From: Sphingomonas adhaesiva
Lineage (GTDB): Bacteria; Pseudomonadota; Alphaproteobacteria; Sphingomonadales; Sphingomonadaceae
Assembly (NCBI RefSeq): GCF_036946125.1
Contig: NZ_JAQIJT010000001.1
Span: 151,284 to 215,283, forward strand
DNA: 64,000 bases
Reading direction: 5' to 3'
Shown: one piece after another, positions 644 to 7,007 of the stretch
How positions within the stretch are numbered: position 1 is the stretch's first letter
Layout: the number at the start of each line of letters is the position of its first letter
Program-made: the position numbers and the translations under genes
The notes under the pieces: model-generated
What the model saw: the letters and a program-made list of their open reading frames with translations, nothing else
What the model was told of the DNA's origin: nothing
The model's database searches: none

Positions 644-1534
644 ATGGACAGCTACGCCGCCCCCGCCCGCTCGCTCGTCGCCGCCCTGGCCGCCGCCGCC
701 GGCGCCGATCCGTCGCGCGCGGTCGCCTTTCAGGGCGCGCCTGGCGCGAACAGCCATGTCGCGGTGACCGAAGCGTTCCCGGACGCGCTCGCGCTCCCCT
801 GTTTCAGCTTCGACGATGCGCTCGACGCGGTAAAGGACGGCCGCGCCGACCGCGCGATGATCCCGATCGAGAATTCGCTCCACGGCCGCGTCGCCGACAT
901 CCATTTCCTGCTGCCCGAATCCGGGCTGGTCATTACGGCCGAGCATTTCCTCGGCATCCGCCACGCGCTGATCGGCTGCGGCCCGAAGGACGGCGTGCGC
1001 CAGGCGATGAGCCACCCGCAGGCGCTGGGCCAATGCCGCCACTGGCTGAAGGCGCACGGGATCGAGCCGGTCAACTACGCCGACACCGCCGGCGCCGCCG
1101 CGCTCGTGGCGGAGCGGCGCGACCCCGCGATCGCCGCGCTCGCCCCGCCGGGCGCGGCGGCGCTCTACGGCCTCGACCTGCTCGCGACCGACATCGCCGA
1201 CGCCGACCACAACATGACCCGCTTCGTCACGCTGGCGCGCGGCACGAAGCCGCTGCTGGGCGAAGGGCCGTGGATGACGACCTTCATCTTCGAGGTGCGG
1301 AACGTCCCCGCCGCGCTCTACAAGGCGATGGGCGGTTTCGCGACGAACGGCGTCAACATGACCAAGCTGGAAAGCTACCAGCGCGGCGGCAGCTTCGCCG
1401 CGACCGAATTCTTCTGCGATGTCGAGGGGCGCCCGGGCGACCCGGCGTTCGACCGCGCGATGGAGGAGCTGGGCTTCCATTGCAAATGGGTCCGCGTGCT
1501 CGGCACCTATGCGCAAGCAAGGGCGCGGGGCTAG
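644..1534 (+). CDS. pheA: prephenate dehydratase
   Basis: 296-aa ORF. AFQGAPGANSHVA...IPIENSLHGRV...TRF motifs and a C-terminal ACT-like region are typical of PheA. Divergent from cytochrome c, as in many alphaproteobacteria. Confidence 0.9.
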   Translation: MDSYAAPARSLVAALAAAAGADPSRAVAFQGAPGANSHVAVTEAFPDALALPCFSFDDALDAVKDGRADRAMIPIENSLHGRVADIHFLLPESGLVITAEHFLGIRHALIGCGPKDGVRQAMSHPQALGQCRHWLKAHGIEPVNYADTAGAAALVAERRDPAIAALAPPGAAALYGLDLLATDIADADHNMTRFVTLARGTKPLLGEGPWMTTFIFEVRNVPAALYKAMGGFATNGVNMTKLESYQRGGSFAATEFFCDVEGRPGDPAFDRAMEELGFHCKWVRVLGTYAQARARG

Positions 1535-2970
1535 TTGCCCCCTGCCGTCGCCCCGGGCTTGAGCCGGGGTGACGAAAGGGACGCATGCGCCGCCTTCAGG
1601 TCCTCCACGAAGCGCGCATATTCCGCCTCCCGCGCCGCCTCGTCGGGCAGCCGCAGCAGGTAGCTGGGGTGCACCGTGATCCACGCCGCCCCCCCGTCGG
1701 GCAGCCGCTGCGCCCGCCCGCGCTCGCGCGAGATCGTCATCGTCCGCCCGAACAGGCTGCGCGCCGCGGTCGCGCCCAGCGCCACCGTGACAGCGGGGCG
1801 CAACAGCATCTGTTCCTGCTCGATCCACCAGCGACACGCATCGATCTCGCCCGCATCCGGCCTGGCATGGATGCGCCGCCGCCCGCGCGGCTCGAACTTG
1901 AAATGCTTCACCGCATTGGTGACATATGTTTCCGCGCGCGTGATGCCCGCGGCGGCCAGCGCGCGATCGAACACCTGTCCCGCCGGTCCGACGAAGGGAT
2001 GCCCCGCCAGGTCCTCCTGGTCGCCCGGCTGCTCGCCGACGAACATCATGCCGGCGTCGAGCGGCCCTTCGCCGAACACCGTCTGGGTCGCCGGCTTGTA
2101 CAGCGGACAGCGCGTACACCCCGCCGCTTCCTCGCGCAGCGCCTCCCACGCCGCGGTGACGTTTCCGCCCATGTCCGACCGTGACGTCGCGATCATTCCG
2201 CTCTCCCGTGCCTGCGCGCTCGCCAGCAGCTGCGGCACCAGCGCGGTTTCCGGCATGTTCTTCCAGTATTTGCGCGGCATCTCCTTCAGCATCGCGCCGA
2301 CCTTCACGCGCGCGGGATTGAAGATGCTGGCGTAATAGGTCTTCCACACCTCCTCGACGGGGTCGCCGTCCGGCGCCTCCGCACGCGACGCCCCCGGCCC
2401 CTCCGACAATGCCCTGCCGTCCCAATGGAGCGATACCCCGGGCGTCAGGATCGACCAGCGCATGCTGGCGAAGCGGTTGACGAAGAAGGCGGCGTTGGCG
2501 CGGACGATATGATGCTCCGGCTCGAACCAGGCGACGTAGCGCGTGCCGCCTTCCTCCTCGCCCCTCTCCTCGACGGCACGGAAGCGCAGGAAGGCGCGCA
2601 TCTTGTGGATGTCGCGCCGCACCGCCTTCGCCAGCCCCTCCAGCCGCCGCACCAGCGGATCGGCATGGTCCTCCGCCAGCTTCGGCGCGTCGCGCAGCCG
2701 CCACAGCATCGCATAGAGCAGCGCGAACCGCTCCGGATCGGCGTGAAGCGCCGCGTCGCCCGCGAGGGCGAGGAACGCGCGCGACACCCGCAGCGGTGCG
2801 CCGGTCGGATCGGCACGCGGCGCCGCCGCGGCCTGGGCGAACAGATCGGTCGAGGCATCGCCCAGCTGCCATACGACGCGGTCGGGTGGAATGTCGTCCG
2901 CGATCAGCCCCCGCGCGGCACCGCGCCACGCGTCGACATCGTCGGGGGCGGGCAAGGTGACGGTGCGCAT
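1531..2970 (-). CDS. DUF4130 (TIGR03915-like) domain fused to a UdgX-type family-4 uracil-DNA glycosylase domain
   Basis: 479 aa. The C-terminal half has family-4 UDG motif A GEQPGDQEDLAGHPFVGPAG and the UdgX-like loop FKFEPRGRRRIH. The N-terminal half resembles the conserved partner of the TIGR03916 radical SAM protein. The last ~15 codons (..SPRLKPGATAGGN) lie in a REP-like palindrome at 1546-1574. Confidence 0.85.
   Translation of the reverse strand: MRTVTLPAPDDVDAWRGAARGLIADDIPPDRVVWQLGDASTDLFAQAAAAPRADPTGAPLRVSRAFLALAGDAALHADPERFALLYAMLWRLRDAPKLAEDHADPLVRRLEGLAKAVRRDIHKMRAFLRFRAVEERGEEEGGTRYVAWFEPEHHIVRANAAFFVNRFASMRWSILTPGVSLHWDGRALSEGPGASRAEAPDGDPVEEVWKTYYASIFNPARVKVGAMLKEMPRKYWKNMPETALVPQLLASAQARESGMIATSRSDMGGNVTAAWEALREEAAGCTRCPLYKPATQTVFGEGPLDAGMMFVGEQPGDQEDLAGHPFVGPAGQVFDRALAAAGITRAETYVTNAVKHFKFEPRGRRRIHARPDAGEIDACRWWIEQEQMLLRPAVTVALGATAARSLFGRTMTISRERGRAQRLPDGGAAWITVHPSYLLRLPDEAAREAEYARFVEDLKAAHASLSSPRLKPGATAGGN
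1546..1574. repeat. REP-like palindrome (cgtcgCCCCGGgcttgagCCGGGGtgacg), family E
   Basis: Inverted repeat seen directly. Related copies at 19879-19904, 45688-45713, 45725-45770 and 49689-49736. Confidence 0.7.
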
Positions 2971-2996
2971 CTAGGACGCACCACCCCCACCCGCAT

Positions 2997-3092
2997 CGTC
3001 ATTCCCGCGAAGGCGGGAGTCCAGACACGCTGACGCCGCGACCATCATCGAAACGTCGGCGTATCTGAATCCCCGTCTCCGCGGGGATGACG
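2997..3092. repeat. pair of REP-like hairpins in inverted orientation (cgtcattcccgcgaaggcgggagtcc ... gaatccccgtctccgcggggatgacg)
   Basis: Two short stem-loops whose outer ends (cgtcat / atgacg) are mutually inverted. They sit between the hemerythrin gene and the UdgX-like gene. Confidence 0.65.
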
Positions 3093-3107
3093 GCGCGAAG
3101 GAACGCC

Positions 3108-3593
3108 TCACTCGCGCTCGTCGCCCCCCGGCGGGTTGGCACGCGCCAGTTCCAGCTCCTCGGGCTTGCGCTCCTCATACGTTTCCGCCAGCCGTTCCTC
3201 GGTCGTGCTGTCGAGCTCCTTCTCCGCGGCGGGGAACATCTCTTCCTCCTCCTCGTCGATATGATGCTCGTAGCGGTGGCGCATGTGGAAGAATTTCGAC
3301 TCCCATTCGTCCGATGCAAAATCCAGGTCCATCATCTCGCCCAGCAGGTCGTCGACCTCCTTGTGCTCGGCGACCGAATGCCGCGCATCGTCGCGCAGAT
3401 CGGGGTTGCTCAGCATCTCGGCATAAAGCGATTCCTCTTCCGCCGCGGCGTGGCTCTGCACCTCCAGCCGGAAGTCCTCGAACAGCTTCTGCCGCTTCTT
3501 CGCATCGCCCTTCAGCTCGGCAAGTTCCTTCAGCATCTTGCGCTGCTTGTCGTGATCGCGCTTCAGATCGGCGTAGATTGCGGCGGTCGCCAT
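3108..3593 (-). CDS. hemerythrin-like (HHE cation-binding) domain protein
   Basis: Start chosen at MATAAIYADLKRDHDKQRKML (ATG 3593), with GGAG 8 nt upstream. His/Glu-rich helices (DHD, QSHAAAEEE, HSVAEHKEVDD, RYEHHIDEEEEE) are typical of the hemerythrin/HHE family. Confidence 0.8.
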   Translation of the reverse strand: MATAAIYADLKRDHDKQRKMLKELAELKGDAKKRQKLFEDFRLEVQSHAAAEEESLYAEMLSNPDLRDDARHSVAEHKEVDDLLGEMMDLDFASDEWESKFFHMRHRYEHHIDEEEEEMFPAAEKELDSTTEERLAETYEERKPEELELARANPPGGDERE

Positions 3594-3656
3594 CGGACAT
3601 CTCCTTCGCCACCGACAGCGCACGACCGCGCGCACCGTTTCACCCGCGAGTCATTC

Positions 3657-4910
3657 TCACGCGGCGAACAATTCCAGCTGTTGCGTCCTTGCCTTCGGCG
3701 CGACCAGCGGCGTCAGATCGGCACGGTCCGCCAGCACCACCGGGCGCCAGTCCTCGGTCGTGATGAACGGCCGAACGCGCGCGATCGACACCGTCAGCCG
3801 CGCGACATCGTCCAGCCGCAACCGCCGCCAGCGCCGCGCCGCCAGGATGCTCGCCACCGCCTTCGTCCCCAGCCCCGGCACGCGCCACAGCAGCTCGCGC
3901 GGCGCGCGATTGATGTCGACCGGGAAGCGCTCGCGAAATTTCAGCGCCCACGCCAGCTTGGGGTCCATATCGAGCGGCAGCATCCCCGTCGCCGCATCGG
4001 TCGCCGCCACCACCTCCGCGGGCTGGAAGCCGTAGAAGCGCATCAGCCAGTCCGACTGGTACAGCCGGTGCTCGCGCATCAGCGGCGGGCGCTGGAGCGG
4101 CAGCACCGCGGACGCGTCCGGGATCGGGCTGAAGGCCGAATAATAGACCCGCCGCAAGCCGAAGCGGTCGTACAGCGCCGACGCCCTGGTCACGATGTCG
4201 CCGTCCGTCGCGGCATCCGCCCCGACGATCATCTGCGTCGACTGCCCCGCGGGCGCGAACGTCGGCGCCGATCTGTAGCGCTTCTTCGCATCCGCCGTAT
4301 CGACGATCGCGCTCTTCATGTCGCGCATCGCGCCCTCGATCCGCGCCCCGTCCTTCTCGGGCGCCAGCCGCTTCAGCCCGCCCGCGGTCGGCAGCTCGAC
4401 GTTGATCGAGACGCGGTCGGCAAACAGGCCCGCGCGATGCACCAGCTCCGGATCGGCGTCGGGGATCGTCTTGAGGTGGATGTATCCGCGAAAATGATGA
4501 TCCTCGCGCAGCGACCGCGCCACCTCGACGATCTGTTCCATCGTATAGTCCGACGAATGGATGATCCCCGACGACAGGAACAGCCCCTCGATATAATTGC
4601 GCCGATAGAAGGACAGGGTGAGGTTCACCACCTCCTGCGCGGTTAACCGCGCGCGCCGCACGTTCGAGCTCTTGCGGTTGATGCAATAATGACAGTCGAA
4701 GATGCAGCTGTTGGTCAGCAGGATCTTGAGCAGCGAAATGCACCGGCCATCAGGGGCATAGGCATGGCAGATGCCCATCCCCTCGGTCGAACCCAGCCCC
4801 TTGCCGTCCTTCGAGTTCCGCTTCGCCGTGCCCGACGACGCGCAGGACGCATCGTACTTCGCCGCATCGGCGAGGATCTCCAGCTTCCGGCGGGTGTCGA
4901 GTTGCGCCAT
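3657..4910 (-). CDS. putative DNA modification/repair radical SAM protein (TIGR03916-like)
   Basis: CX3CX2C cluster CIFDCHYC. The N-terminus MAQLDTRRKLEILADAAKYDASCASSG matches the family's usual start, so I prefer ATG 4910. An in-frame upstream ATG at 4964 is the alternative. Confidence 0.85.
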   Translation of the reverse strand: MAQLDTRRKLEILADAAKYDASCASSGTAKRNSKDGKGLGSTEGMGICHAYAPDGRCISLLKILLTNSCIFDCHYCINRKSSNVRRARLTAQEVVNLTLSFYRRNYIEGLFLSSGIIHSSDYTMEQIVEVARSLREDHHFRGYIHLKTIPDADPELVHRAGLFADRVSINVELPTAGGLKRLAPEKDGARIEGAMRDMKSAIVDTADAKKRYRSAPTFAPAGQSTQMIVGADAATDGDIVTRASALYDRFGLRRVYYSAFSPIPDASAVLPLQRPPLMREHRLYQSDWLMRFYGFQPAEVVAATDAATGMLPLDMDPKLAWALKFRERFPVDINRAPRELLWRVPGLGTKAVASILAARRWRRLRLDDVARLTVSIARVRPFITTEDWRPVVLADRADLTPLVAPKARTQQLELFAA

Positions 4911-4912
4911 AT

Positions 4913-4927
4913 GTTCGATGTATGTTC
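4913..4927. promoter_or_regulatory. alphaproteobacterial LexA (SOS) box GTTC-N7-GTTC
   Basis: The sequence GTTCgatgtatGTTC (minus strand GAACatacatcGAAC) lies 2 nt upstream of the preferred radical SAM start, inside the 65-bp divergent region shared with the GT87-like gene. Confidence 0.6.
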
Positions 4928-4975
4928 GCGCGCGCGCCTTGTCGAGGGCGAACCGTGCTGCCATGGATCAAGTCG

Positions 4976-6199
4976 ATGAAGCGTATCGTCGATCGGCTCG
5001 GCCCCAACGGCCCCTATCTGGCGCTGGCCCTGACCTGCCTGCTCGGCTGGGGGTTCAAGGCGCATTGCGGCGCGGGCTGGACCGGCAGCGAACAATATAC
5101 CACCGGCTGTTACAGCGACGCCGTCCCCTTCTGGGGGATGCGCGGGCTGGCCGACGGCAAGGTGCCGTACTTCCAGGCGCGGATGGAATATCCGGTGCTG
5201 ACCGGCGCGCTGATCTGGGTCGAGGCGCTGTTCGCGCGGGTCACCGCCGGCGTCCGCGCCGATGCCGCCACCTTCCTCAACGCGGTCGTGCTGGGCAATG
5301 CGATCCTCGCCTTCGCCATTCTGGAGATGATCCGGGGCGTCGGCCTGTCGCTTCGGCGCCAGTATGCCTGGGCACTGGCGCCGCCGCTTGTCCTCTACCT
5401 CGGCCACAATTGGGACCTGCTGGCCGCATCCTTCGCGGTAGCTGCGATGCTGGCAGCCCGTCGCGACCGGCGCGTCCGCGCCACCGCGCTCGCTGCACTG
5501 GGCGGCGCGGCGAAGCTCTTCCCGGTGCTGATGCTGCCGCTTCTCGGGCTGGGCGCGCTGTTCGCACCCCGACGCTCCCACCGGGACCGTTTCGTCGGCG
5601 CGGCGTCGCTGGTCGTCGTGGCGATCGCCGCATGGGGCGCGGTGAACCTGCCGGTGGCCGCGCTCGCCTTCGACAACTGGCGCGAATTCTACGCCTTCTC
5701 CGGCGAGCGCCCCGGCACGGCGGCGAGCATGTGGGAGCTGATGGCGCAATTCGGCTGGTGGATCACCGACGTGCCGACGCGCAACCTGTGGTCGTTCCTG
5801 CTGTTCGCCGGCGGCGCGGCGACGATCGTCGCGGCTGGATGGCGGCGGCATGGCGAACAGCCGTGGCTGCTGTTCACCCCGGTGCTCGCGTGGTTCCTGC
5901 TGACCAACAAGGTGTGGTCGCCGCAATTCGACCTGTGGCTCTGGCCGATGCTGGTGCTGACCGGCACGCGCGCGCGCCCGATGGCATTGTTCCTGCTGGG
6001 CGACGTGGCCGCCTATTTCGCCGAATTCTGGATGTTCGCCGGCATGGAAGGCGCCTCCCCCTCCGCCACCCACACCGACATCCTCACCGCCGCCCTGGTC
6101 CGCGCCGTTGCGATCCTGTGGCTGATCCACGCGGCGGTCCGCGACCCGGCGCCGAGTTGGGCGCGATTCACGCGAAGCCGCGAAGACGCAAAGGCGTAG
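4976..6199 (+). CDS. polytopic membrane protein resembling DUF2029 / GT87-type polyprenyl-phosphate-mannose glycosyltransferases
   Basis: Start taken at MKRIVDRLGPNGPYLALAL (ATG 4976). There are multiple TM segments, and CYSDAVPFWGMRGL..PYFQARMEYPVLTG resembles the N-terminal loop motif of actinobacterial DUF2029/GT87 proteins. The last ~11 codons are encoded by the tandem repeat. Confidence 0.6.
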   Translation: MKRIVDRLGPNGPYLALALTCLLGWGFKAHCGAGWTGSEQYTTGCYSDAVPFWGMRGLADGKVPYFQARMEYPVLTGALIWVEALFARVTAGVRADAATFLNAVVLGNAILAFAILEMIRGVGLSLRRQYAWALAPPLVLYLGHNWDLLAASFAVAAMLAARRDRRVRATALAALGGAAKLFPVLMLPLLGLGALFAPRRSHRDRFVGAASLVVVAIAAWGAVNLPVAALAFDNWREFYAFSGERPGTAASMWELMAQFGWWITDVPTRNLWSFLLFAGGAATIVAAGWRRHGEQPWLLFTPVLAWFLLTNKVWSPQFDLWLWPMLVLTGTRARPMALFLLGDVAAYFAEFWMFAGMEGASPSATHTDILTAALVRAVAILWLIHAAVRDPAPSWARFTRSREDAKA

Positions 6200-6387
6200 C
6201 GCCCGGCGCAAAGCGCCCTTACTGGATCGCGCAGAGGAAGACAGGCCCCCGCCGTCCCCGAGCGCTCCATCTTCGCGTCTTCGCGTCTTCGCGAGAGAAA
6301 GGGATACACGCGGAGGCGCGGAGGCGCGGAGGCGCGGAGAGCATCGGCACCGCCCTCTGCGTCCTTCGCGTGCTCTGCGCGAACCAG

Positions 6388-6413
6388 AAAAAAAGAGCCG
6401 CCCGTGGCGGCTC
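6388..6413 (-). terminator. intrinsic-terminator-like hairpin plus T7 (minus strand), repeat unit 1
   Basis: gagccgcc-cgt-ggcggctc is an 8-bp perfect stem. On the minus strand it is followed by TTTTTTT (plus-strand A7 at 6388-6394). Confidence 0.5.
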
Positions 6414-6660
6414 GGAACGACCCCGGCGCCGGCCTGAATCGGATTCACGCGAAGCCGCGAAGACGCGAAGGCGGAGCGCCCTTACTGGTTCGCGCAGAGC
6501 ACGCAGAGAACGCAGAGGAAGACAGGCCCCCGCCGCCCCCGAGCGCTCCATCTTCGCGTCTTCACGTCTTCGCGAGAGAAAAGGATTCACGCGGAGGCGC
6601 GGAGGCGCAGAAAGCATCGGCACCGCCCTCTGCGTCCTTCGCGTGCTCTGCGCGAACCAG

Positions 6661-6686
6661 AAAAAAAGAGCCGTCCGTGGCGGCTC
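6661..6686 (-). terminator. intrinsic-terminator-like hairpin plus T7 (minus strand), repeat unit 2
   Basis: gagccgtc-cgt-ggcggctc (one G-U pair), preceded on the plus strand by A7 (6661-6667). Confidence 0.5.
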
Positions 6687-6920
6687 GGAGCGACCCCGGC
6701 GCCGGCCTGAATCGGATTCACGCGAAGCCGCGAAGACGCGAAGGCGGAGCGCCCTTACTGGTTCGCGCAGAGTACGCAGAGAACGCAGAGGAAGACAGGC
6801 CCCCGCCGCCCCCGAGCGCTCCATCTTCGCGTCTTCGCGTCTTCGCGAGATAAAAGGATTCACGCGGATGCGCAGAGAGCATCGGCACCACCCTCTGCGT
6901 CCTCCGCGTGCTCTGCGCGA

Positions 6921-6950
6921 ACCAGAAAAGAGAGCCGCCCGTGGCGGCTC
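6921..6950 (-). terminator. probable smc terminator (hairpin plus TCTTTTCT on the minus strand), repeat unit 3
   Basis: Same 8-bp stem, at 6932-6950, ~58 nt downstream of the smc stop at 7008-7010. The minus-strand tail is T-rich. Confidence 0.55.
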
Positions 6951-7007
6951 GGAACGCAGCAACAGACGCCACACCTCCGCGTCTTCGCGCCTCCGCGTGA
7001 ACCCGAT

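Follow-up and report, generated by a model that had tools for sequence, protein, structure and literature searches.

Gene content of the cassette

The window analysed here is a stretch of 64,000 nucleotides from Sphingomonas adhaesiva (contig NZ_JAQIJT010000001.1, positions 151,284 to 215,283 of the forward strand). It contains a cassette of three co-oriented minus-strand genes encoding a radical S-adenosylmethionine (SAM) protein of family TIGR03916, a hemerythrin-like protein, and a fusion of a DUF4130/TIGR03915 domain with a UdgX-type uracil-DNA glycosylase (UDG) domain. A LexA box precedes the first gene and a predicted promoter of the EcfG general-stress type the second, and two stress signals probably act on part of the operon. 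An earlier reading of the DNA, made from the sequence only, had proposed this gene order together with the motifs of the proteins, and the profile scores for TIGR03916, PF01814, TIGR03915 and TIGR03914 confirm it. The coding features are as follows.

3657..4910, minus strand: radical SAM protein, 417 aa (TIGR03916, 565.1 bits; cutoff 343.5)
3108..3593, minus strand: hemerythrin-like di-iron protein, 161 aa (PF01814, 59.4 bits; gathering cutoff 25.3)
1531..2970, minus strand: coding sequence of the DUF4130-UdgX fusion (matches to TIGR03915 and TIGR03914)
2245..2946, minus strand: DUF4130/TIGR03915 domain, N-terminal half of the fusion (TIGR03915, 214.5 bits, cutoff 112.25; PF13566, 131.6 bits, cutoff 27)
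1591..2238, minus strand: UdgX-type family-4 UDG domain (TIGR03914, 315 bits; cutoff 189.95)

The cluster motif CxxxCxxC of radical SAM enzymes is present as CIFDCHYC at residues 69-76 (nt 4683-4706). The open reading frame of the hemerythrin spans 3635..3108, and its start was placed at the ATG at 3593, which lies behind the Shine-Dalgarno sequence AAGGAG.

For comparison, a scan of genomes with the radical SAM protein gave 80 species-level loci, all from Sphingomonadales (individual loci are cited below by L numbers). Four alphaproteobacterial replicons, from Allorhizobium, Azospirillum, Paracoccus and Phaeobacter, represent the other orders Rhizobiales, Rhodospirillales and Rhodobacterales. 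The TIGR03915 partner, which lies in the same operon in the window, was found within 5 kb of the radical SAM gene in 74 of the 80 loci. It was not found on the available fragment in L001, L037, L046, L055 and L057, several of which are short contigs, and the fragment of L058 contains only its start. L001 and L037 have the radical SAM gene with its LexA box and no DUF4130-UdgX gene within 5 kb downstream, and form exceptions to strict adjacency.

A LexA box that abuts the radical SAM start codon

The region directly upstream of the radical SAM gene contains three regulatory features.

4913..4927, minus strand: LexA box GAACATACATCGAAC, overlapping the -10 region and ending 2 nt before the ATG at 4910
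4917-4922, minus strand: -10 region TACATC, inside the LexA box
4940..4945, minus strand: -35-like hexamer TCGACA, at -35 to -30 from the A of the ATG at 4910

On the forward strand the box reads GTTCgatgtatGTTC and is the sole exact match to GTTCN7GTTC in the window; no second exact box occurs near the hemerythrin or DUF4130 starts. Matches with one mismatch at 3194-3208, 2725-2739 and 2246-2260 all lie within coding sequence. Since about one exact match is expected by chance (0.98 per 64 kb, with at least one in 63 of 100 shuffled sequences), the box sequence alone proves nothing and conservation has to decide. A GAACN7GAAC box was found upstream of the radical SAM orthologue in 78 of the 80 Sphingomonadales loci, and in 70 of the 80 it is positioned at -17 or -18, ending 2-3 nt before the ATG. 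All four replicons of other orders have the box too, close upstream of the start as annotated, in Phaeobacter again at -17. In several loci of Erythrobacteraceae it lies 28-42 nt upstream of the start, and the leaders of these genes contain GAAAGG-like sequences that, judged by eye, resemble Shine-Dalgarno sites. Because the box is conserved across orthologous loci, the SOS operator that had been proposed at 4913-4927 is to be regarded as real, and LexA would be expected to bind there in S. adhaesiva.

Two start codons had been considered for the radical SAM gene, the ATG at 4910 with a leaderless SOS transcript, and 4964 with the operator inside the first codons. Homologues align from residue 1 of the protein that starts at 4910, and the extension toward 4964 is interrupted by an in-frame stop in 46 of 81 loci; on these two grounds the start at 4964 is rejected. 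A position matrix built from the 66 loci whose box is at -17 and from the window, 67 sequences in all, shows the -35-like consensus cTTGaC at -36 to -31 (60 sequences have T at -35 and 61 have G at -33), and the spacer of the box (-17 to -3) provides a -10-like TATAAg at -12 to -7. The A of the ATG thereby sits where the transcript start is expected relative to the -10 element. Just 17 of the 67 sequences have a Shine-Dalgarno-like tetramer between -16 and -5, and in these the tetramer is located inside the box itself. From this promoter geometry and its conservation we infer that a putative leaderless promoter occluded by LexA is the best reading of the radical SAM start, with which the start at 4910 is in agreement.

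SOS control of the cassette is already published, and the cassette is not a new regulon member. A paper that cites da Rocha 2008 and Erill 2016 on this point states that the COG1573-COG4277 operon for 'UDG base excision repair' had been reported to be SOS-regulated in Alphaproteobacteria and Verrucomicrobia, and predicts the same for Bacteroidetes (PMC8565304). In Moraxellaceae the cassette genes are DNA-damage-response genes under the activator DdaA (PMC12392091). With the SOS-regulated COG4277-COG1573 operon of Caulobacter, other Alphaproteobacteria, Verrucomicrobia and Bacteroidetes the window shares both protein families, the gene order, and the class-specific GTTCN7GTTC direct repeat in the promoter. 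It differs by a third gene with its own EcfG-type promoter between the partners, and by the position of the box, which in Sphingomonadales abuts the ATG and points to a leaderless mRNA. Neither of these two features was found described in the accessible literature on this operon.

A predicted EcfG-type promoter that travels with the hemerythrin gene

3617..3641, minus strand: EcfG-type promoter-like motif GAAAC-N16-CGCT, whose end lies 23 nt upstream of the hemerythrin ATG

The hemerythrin genes of the cassette are preceded by a footprint of the form (T)GAAAC, TGAAC or GCAAC, a spacer of 16-17 nt and C(C/G)GTT, whose end is about 22-33 nt away from the ATG; elsewhere the intergenic spacer is variable. 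Of 30 regions upstream of hemerythrin genes, 22 contain the core of this footprint, AAC-N16-17-[CG]GTT, compared with 1.6% of random 100-nt windows taken from these loci. The footprint agrees with the general-stress consensus of EcfG in S. melonis Fr1, GGAAC-N17-20-GTT (PMC6599016). The motif in the window misses the strict core, and both the window and L003 carry the CGCT variant. GAAAC and CGCT variants are both present in direct EcfG targets of S. melonis Fr1, CGCT in several high-scoring ones. Where other genes intervene between the radical SAM and hemerythrin genes (L020, L009, L032) the motif follows the hemerythrin, and where the spacer is short its -35 element lies within the last radical SAM codons.

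Published RNA-seq data are available for S. melonis Fr1. The hemerythrin gene Sphme2DRAFT_0733 is classed there among the direct EcfG targets; its site, GAAACGCCGTGCGCGCTCGCCGGTT, has a motif score of 17.2 and is located 24 nt from the coding sequence. In the ecfG deletion strain its expression relative to the wild type is changed by -2.53 (log2) under low stress and by -4.31 in a stress mix, and its induction by stress (+1.41) is seen in the wild type only. The next gene, 0732, annotated as 'uracil-DNA glycosylase, family 4', behaves in the same manner, with values of -2.2 and -4.3 in the deletion strain under the two conditions and an induction of +1.9 in the wild type only. A metagenome contig with the exact 25-mer GAAACGCCGTGCGCGCTCGCCGGTT contains the radical SAM gene with its LexA box, the site, the hemerythrin gene 24 nt further on, and the DUF4130 gene, and from this gene order it follows that the Fr1 locus is orthologous. 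The promoter-like motif of the window resembles that of the Fr1 gene in type and nearly in its distance to the coding sequence (24 nt in Fr1, 23 nt in the window), and the orthologues of its hemerythrin and family-4 UDG genes depend on EcfG in Fr1; the window differs in having the CGCT variant as -10 element. In the Fr1 paper 0733 and 0732 appear in supplementary tables only, unconnected to the radical SAM/UdgX cassette or to SOS. A literature search for 'EcfG' with 'hemerythrin' returned no papers, and the supplementary tables were the only place where the link was found.

The presence of an EcfG-type promoter of its own and the EcfG dependence in Fr1 argue that the hemerythrin gene is not simply an extra SOS cistron, and it would add a second, stress-driven input to the UdgX gene. 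The insertion of the hemerythrin gene with this promoter is the new part of the present description, the LexA control and the UdgX identity of the glycosylase not being new.

The UdgX domain of the fusion protein

Residues 278-461 of the fusion align over 184 residues to the M. smegmatis UdgX structures 6AIL and 6AJO with an E-value of 5e-50 and about 55% identity. The motif GEQPGDQED is encoded at 2011-2037, the R-loop RGRRRIH at 1867-1887 (with His368 at 1867-1869) and HPSYLLR at 1651-1671. In the alignment GEQPGDQEDL corresponds to GEQPGDKEDL, RRRIH to KRRIH with the crosslinking His109, and HPSYLLR to HPSSLLR of M. smegmatis UdgX, so that motif A, the R-loop with its His, motif B (HPS) and aligned Cys residues are shared by both proteins. 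According to PMC10359453, motif A of UdgX is GEQPG, where Q replaces the A or G of family 4. This Q is invariant in 74 of 74 orthologues, as are GEQPG as a whole, the loop His (RRIH) and HPS. Conservation of the His loop had been named beforehand as the point on which the UdgX-type signature would stand or fall, and the signature holds. Membership of the UDG domain in the UdgX family is supported by these comparisons, and crosslinking is predicted from the sequence.

The enzymes differ in context. The M. smegmatis protein is a stand-alone enzyme of about 209 aa, whereas the domain in the window is fused behind DUF4130 and encoded beside a radical SAM gene. A full-text search of the open-access UdgX literature ('UdgX' with 'radical SAM') gave no mention of a radical SAM partner. 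The assignment to UdgX is itself not new, since TIGR03914 is named 'UdgX family uracil-DNA binding protein' in NCBIfam and RefSeq uses the same label for alphaproteobacterial fusions.

The hemerythrin-like protein

The hemerythrin of the window is 100% identical to protein P0001 from a metagenome-assembled genome of Sphingomonas adhaesiva, and all named homologues are from Sphingomonadaceae. Residues H14, H48, E52, H72, H77, H111 and E114-116, which include the His and Glu metal ligands, are invariant in 36 homologues. The AlphaFold2 model (pLDDT 93) is a four-helix bundle with a fifth helix, and its sole strong match in the PDB is 6Q09, a hemerythrin-like protein (HLP) of M. kansasii (TM-score 0.78, root-mean-square deviation 2.3 Å, 24% identity), for which weak catalase and NO-peroxidase activity has been described (PMC8913304). 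Mycobacterial HLPs, of which Rv2633c is another example, are stress-induced and have catalase and NO-peroxidase activity (PMC8913304). The four-helix bundle, the fifth helix and the His/Glu di-iron site are common to them and the Sphingomonas protein. The identity is, however, just 24%, the genomic context is different, and the Sphingomonas protein is known here from its sequence and model.

The profile NF053874 (PA2171 family) gives the hemerythrin a score of 55.3 bits, which is below the cutoff of 190, and membership in this family is rejected on that score.

Gain and loss of the hemerythrin gene

A tblastn search with the window hemerythrin was used to count its occurrence in the 75 loci that hold both the radical SAM and the DUF4130 gene. 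It lies between the partners in 22 of these, all in the Sphingomonadaceae branch, with 36-85% identity to the window protein. It is missing from all 27 loci of the Novosphingobium/Erythrobacteraceae branch and from the four sampled replicons of other orders. On the radical SAM tree the gene is patchy in the Sphingomonas branch, and this distribution implies an old insertion followed by repeated losses. A search that starts from the cassette is biased in its selection of contexts, and nine diverse homologues were also examined from the hemerythrin side: seven of the nine lie in a cassette and two are stand-alone (L088, L100). The hemerythrin in L100 (3001-3468) is found in the same CtpB-DsbB-COQ7 neighbourhood as in L092, with no radical SAM gene, no DUF4130-UdgX gene and no detectable remnant of these at the locus, and comparison of the two loci indicates that the cassette can be lost while the hemerythrin is kept.

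Where the hemerythrin is absent, the stop of the radical SAM gene and the start of DUF4130 overlap (TGAATG) or are within about 40 nt of each other, and such a tightly coupled pair looks like the ancestral state. In L009, L011 and L017 it is the hemerythrin stop that overlaps the DUF4130 start (TGATG). The window, L014, L018, L020 and L024 have palindromic elements of about 150 nt between the hemerythrin and DUF4130 genes. In the window this element is the following.

2992..3097, no strand assigned: REP-like inverted-repeat pair in the gap between the hemerythrin and DUF4130-UdgX genes, predicted to fold into a long RNA hairpin that is not followed by a U tract

The presumed repetitive extragenic palindromic (REP) pair that had been noticed in the sequence is a 44-nt imperfect inverted repeat with arms at 2992-3035 and 3054-3097 that are 77% complementary, and its predicted fold has an energy of -83.7 kcal/mol (z = -6.1). 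An exact search found one copy of the REP unit in the window; similar units of the form GTCAT(T/C)CCCGC...GCGGG are present in L001, L010 and L080, in L001 as a palindrome just after the radical SAM gene. A terminator scan of 1300-5200 detected no convincing terminator between the genes and none at the REP pair.

Proposed regulation and alternative explanations

The conservation of both promoter elements, the synteny of the locus and the Fr1 expression data suggest a model in which the region is the alphaproteobacterial SOS-regulated cassette of radical SAM and DUF4130-UdgX proteins in a three-gene form that would be specific to Sphingomonadaceae and have two promoters. The first would be of the sigma-70 type, with its -10 element and start site covered by the LexA box, and would start transcription at the ATG at 4910, or no more than 1-2 nt from it, to give a leaderless radical SAM mRNA. 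This mRNA probably continues into both downstream genes, with read-through across the REP-like hairpin. DNA damage would cause LexA to be cleaved and this promoter to be derepressed. The second promoter, of the EcfG type and located in the 63-nt spacer after the radical SAM stop, would travel with the hemerythrin gene and drive it, and by read-through also DUF4130-UdgX, so that general stress could, without involvement of SOS, raise the level of the di-iron protein as well as that of the uracil-crosslinking glycosylase. We consider it likely that the hemerythrin module places itself and the UdgX fusion under general-stress control in this way, in addition to the SOS control exerted from the upstream leaderless promoter. 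Insertion of the module would have broken the ancestral coupling of the radical SAM and DUF4130 genes; later the hemerythrin would have become translationally coupled to DUF4130-UdgX in several species, and in the window the REP-like hairpin came to separate them.

As to the proteins, the UdgX domain would excise uracil and tether itself through His368 to the abasic site, and DUF4130 could dock the radical SAM enzyme onto nucleic acid. A 2026 preprint modelled a complex of DUF4130 and the radical SAM protein and proposes nucleic-acid binding by DUF4130. The hemerythrin would most likely be a protective di-iron protein reactive to peroxide and nitric oxide (NO) that limits damage to DNA and to the iron-sulfur (Fe-S) clusters of its neighbours.

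Several observations weigh against this model. A simple sigma-70 scanner found no promoter-like sites in 1300-5200, so that the assignment of the first promoter derives from comparative footprints. The -10 element of the second promoter in the window is CGCT and not the commoner CGTT or GGTT, and the promoter may be weaker for it. The EcfG dependence was measured in S. melonis Fr1, and the promoter in the window itself is a prediction. Fr1 gene 0734 is not among the rows listed in the part of the supplementary tables that was available, which is weak evidence that it is not controlled by EcfG, and its identity as the radical SAM gene follows from synteny. The REP-like hairpin may cut read-through from either promoter into DUF4130-UdgX. 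Finally, the hemerythrin was lost several times within Sphingomonas with the cassette intact and persists without the cassette in L088 and L100. The repeated loss and stand-alone survival indicate that a tight biochemical partnership is not required.

The hemerythrin could be bound more closely to the cassette than the two-promoter model supposes. It could be an O2, NO or iron sensor or an Fe-S protector that is encoded as a cistron of the LexA operon and needed by the O2-labile enzyme in a strict aerobe, an option close to the one put forward in the sequence-only reading. In 22 species it keeps the same place between the partners, even at an identity as low as 36%. This speaks for such a dedicated accessory, and so do the seven of nine hemerythrin-side contexts in a cassette, the stop/start overlap with DUF4130-UdgX in L009, L011 and L017, and the invariant di-iron ligands. 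Moreover, both neighbours are Fe-S proteins, as judged from the CxxxCxxC motif of the radical SAM protein and the Cys residues of the family-4 UDG that align with UdgX. An accessory of this kind is nevertheless difficult to reconcile with an EcfG-type promoter of its own and with the EcfG dependence of the Fr1 orthologue, where the radical SAM gene is not among the rows listed in the accessible tables. It is also absent from the 27 Novosphingobium/Erythrobacteraceae-branch loci and the other-order replicons, was lost repeatedly in Sphingomonas from cassettes that remained intact, and occurs alone in L088 and L100. Of the earlier proposal the conserved linkage stands (22 of 75 loci, seven of nine contexts), and the notion of the hemerythrin as one more SOS cistron does not, in view of the EcfG-type promoter, the losses and the stand-alone copies. 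We regard a dedicated accessory as rather unlikely. Long retention and translational coupling argue for some link of the hemerythrin to the Fe-S enzymes, whereas its repeated loss and its survival outside the cassette speak against an obligate link; a function as protector or sensor for the radical SAM enzyme is possible.

At the other extreme, the hemerythrin could be an ordinary general-stress gene that settled in an insertion-tolerant site and is functionally unrelated to its neighbours, read-through into UdgX being incidental. The site does accept unrelated inserts: a pair of genes for a beta-helix protein and a dihaem cytochrome (L020, L028, L031, L099), a DUF1080 gene (L041), an oppositely oriented transporter gene (L029) and an Asp beta-hydroxylase-like gene (L045), as well as REP-like palindromes. 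Losses have also occurred in both directions, giving hemerythrin without cassette and cassette without hemerythrin. A mere passenger, however, would not be expected at the same site across so deep a divergence (hemerythrin identity down to 36%, radical SAM identity 77-90%), and translational coupling to DUF4130-UdgX evolved anew. Despite the inserts the hemerythrin adjoins DUF4130-UdgX in L020 and the radical SAM gene in L028 and L031, and in Fr1 the UDG gene matches the EcfG dependence of the hemerythrin in magnitude. We therefore hold a passenger role to be unlikely.

That the hemerythrin is a growth brake of the PA2171 type, which would bind ribosomes and FtsZ and pause translation and division during damage in a role like that of SulA or SidA, is highly improbable: NF053874 is its sole NCBIfam match and covers nearly the whole protein, and PA2171 is a five-helix hemerythrin-like inhibitor of translation and FtsZ polymerisation (PMC13041383), but the protein reaches 55 bits where the cutoff is 190, the conservation of all di-iron ligands suggests that metal chemistry matters, and the best structural relative is the mycobacterial HLP and not PA2171.

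If the two-promoter model is correct, insertion of a gene together with its promoter would have rewired an operon in part, from the SOS regulon into that of EcfG as a second stress regulon. The pair of radical SAM and DUF4130-UdgX proteins is widespread and damage-inducible under several unrelated regulators. That the UdgX half would also be switched on by general stress suggests conditions under which its substrate may be sought, namely oxidative, nitrosative, desiccation and UV-type stress. The conserved di-iron neighbour could serve as a handle on the question of whether the enzyme is limited in aerobes by the protection of Fe-S clusters or against oxygen.

A further-reaching version of the two-promoter model can be considered, in which the hemerythrin works together with the radical SAM and UdgX proteins as a genuine partner and the EcfG promoter is a selected device that merges SOS and general-stress signals. 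We think this improbable on present evidence. In that case the hemerythrin might scavenge peroxide or NO, or repair Fe-S clusters, allowing the O2-labile radical SAM DNA enzyme and the Fe-S glycosylase to work in strict aerobes. NO or reactive oxygen species would then not only give rise to the uracil lesions but also serve as the signal for more of the lesion-marking enzyme.

Other labels, neighbouring genes and further inserts

Two other assignments were discarded. A sequence search of the PDB gave no significant relative of the radical SAM protein, and no match to spore photoproduct lyase was obtained, leaving the label 'SplB-like' unsupported at the sequence level. The defence-system models of PADLOC had zero matches to any of the three proteins, and a reading as an anti-phage system is ruled out on that basis.

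The cassette is flanked by a convergent prephenate dehydratase gene and by a divergent gene (ATG at 4976) for a membrane protein that is weakly GT87-like. The ATG of this gene and that of the radical SAM gene (4910) are 65 nt apart (4911-4975). The LexA box and the radical SAM promoter fill most of this space, and the promoter of the GT87-like gene may overlap them. In most other loci the neighbour upstream of the radical SAM gene is a different one. Between the GT87-like gene and an SMC gene, at 6230-6956, lies a 273-bp unit in 2.7 tandem copies (92% matches), which includes a microrepeat of 3.9 copies of CGCGGAGG at 6309-6339 and gives rise to spurious long open reading frames on both strands.

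A small predicted membrane protein of about 100-130 aa is encoded directly after the radical SAM gene in L032 (6333-6641), L067 (6320-6673), L049 (6317-6715) and L090 (3636-3947). It has no Pfam match on record. In L032, L067 and L090 the gene stands before the hemerythrin and in L049 it is the sole insert, which makes it a second recurrent accessory gene of the cassette. The beta-helix/haem pair consists of a gene for a NosD-like parallel beta-helix protein and one for a protein with CxxCH haem motifs, and it lies inside the cassette in L020 (6285-8728), L028 (6808-9014), L031 (6768-9010) and L099 (3657-5875). It follows the hemerythrin in L028, L031 and L099 and precedes it in L020, where the promoter motif of the hemerythrin is kept.

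In distant alphaproteobacteria the cassette is flanked by genes of a general-stress type (L082 1615-2637 and 5980-7986; L097 1-835; L096 5242-5724), which encode topoisomerase IB, a Pyrid_ox_like/pyridoxamine 5'-phosphate oxidase family protein and an HWE histidine kinase. Among the EcfG targets of S. melonis Fr1 are topoisomerase IB and a general stress protein 26. This hints that the cassette and the general stress response are linked more widely.

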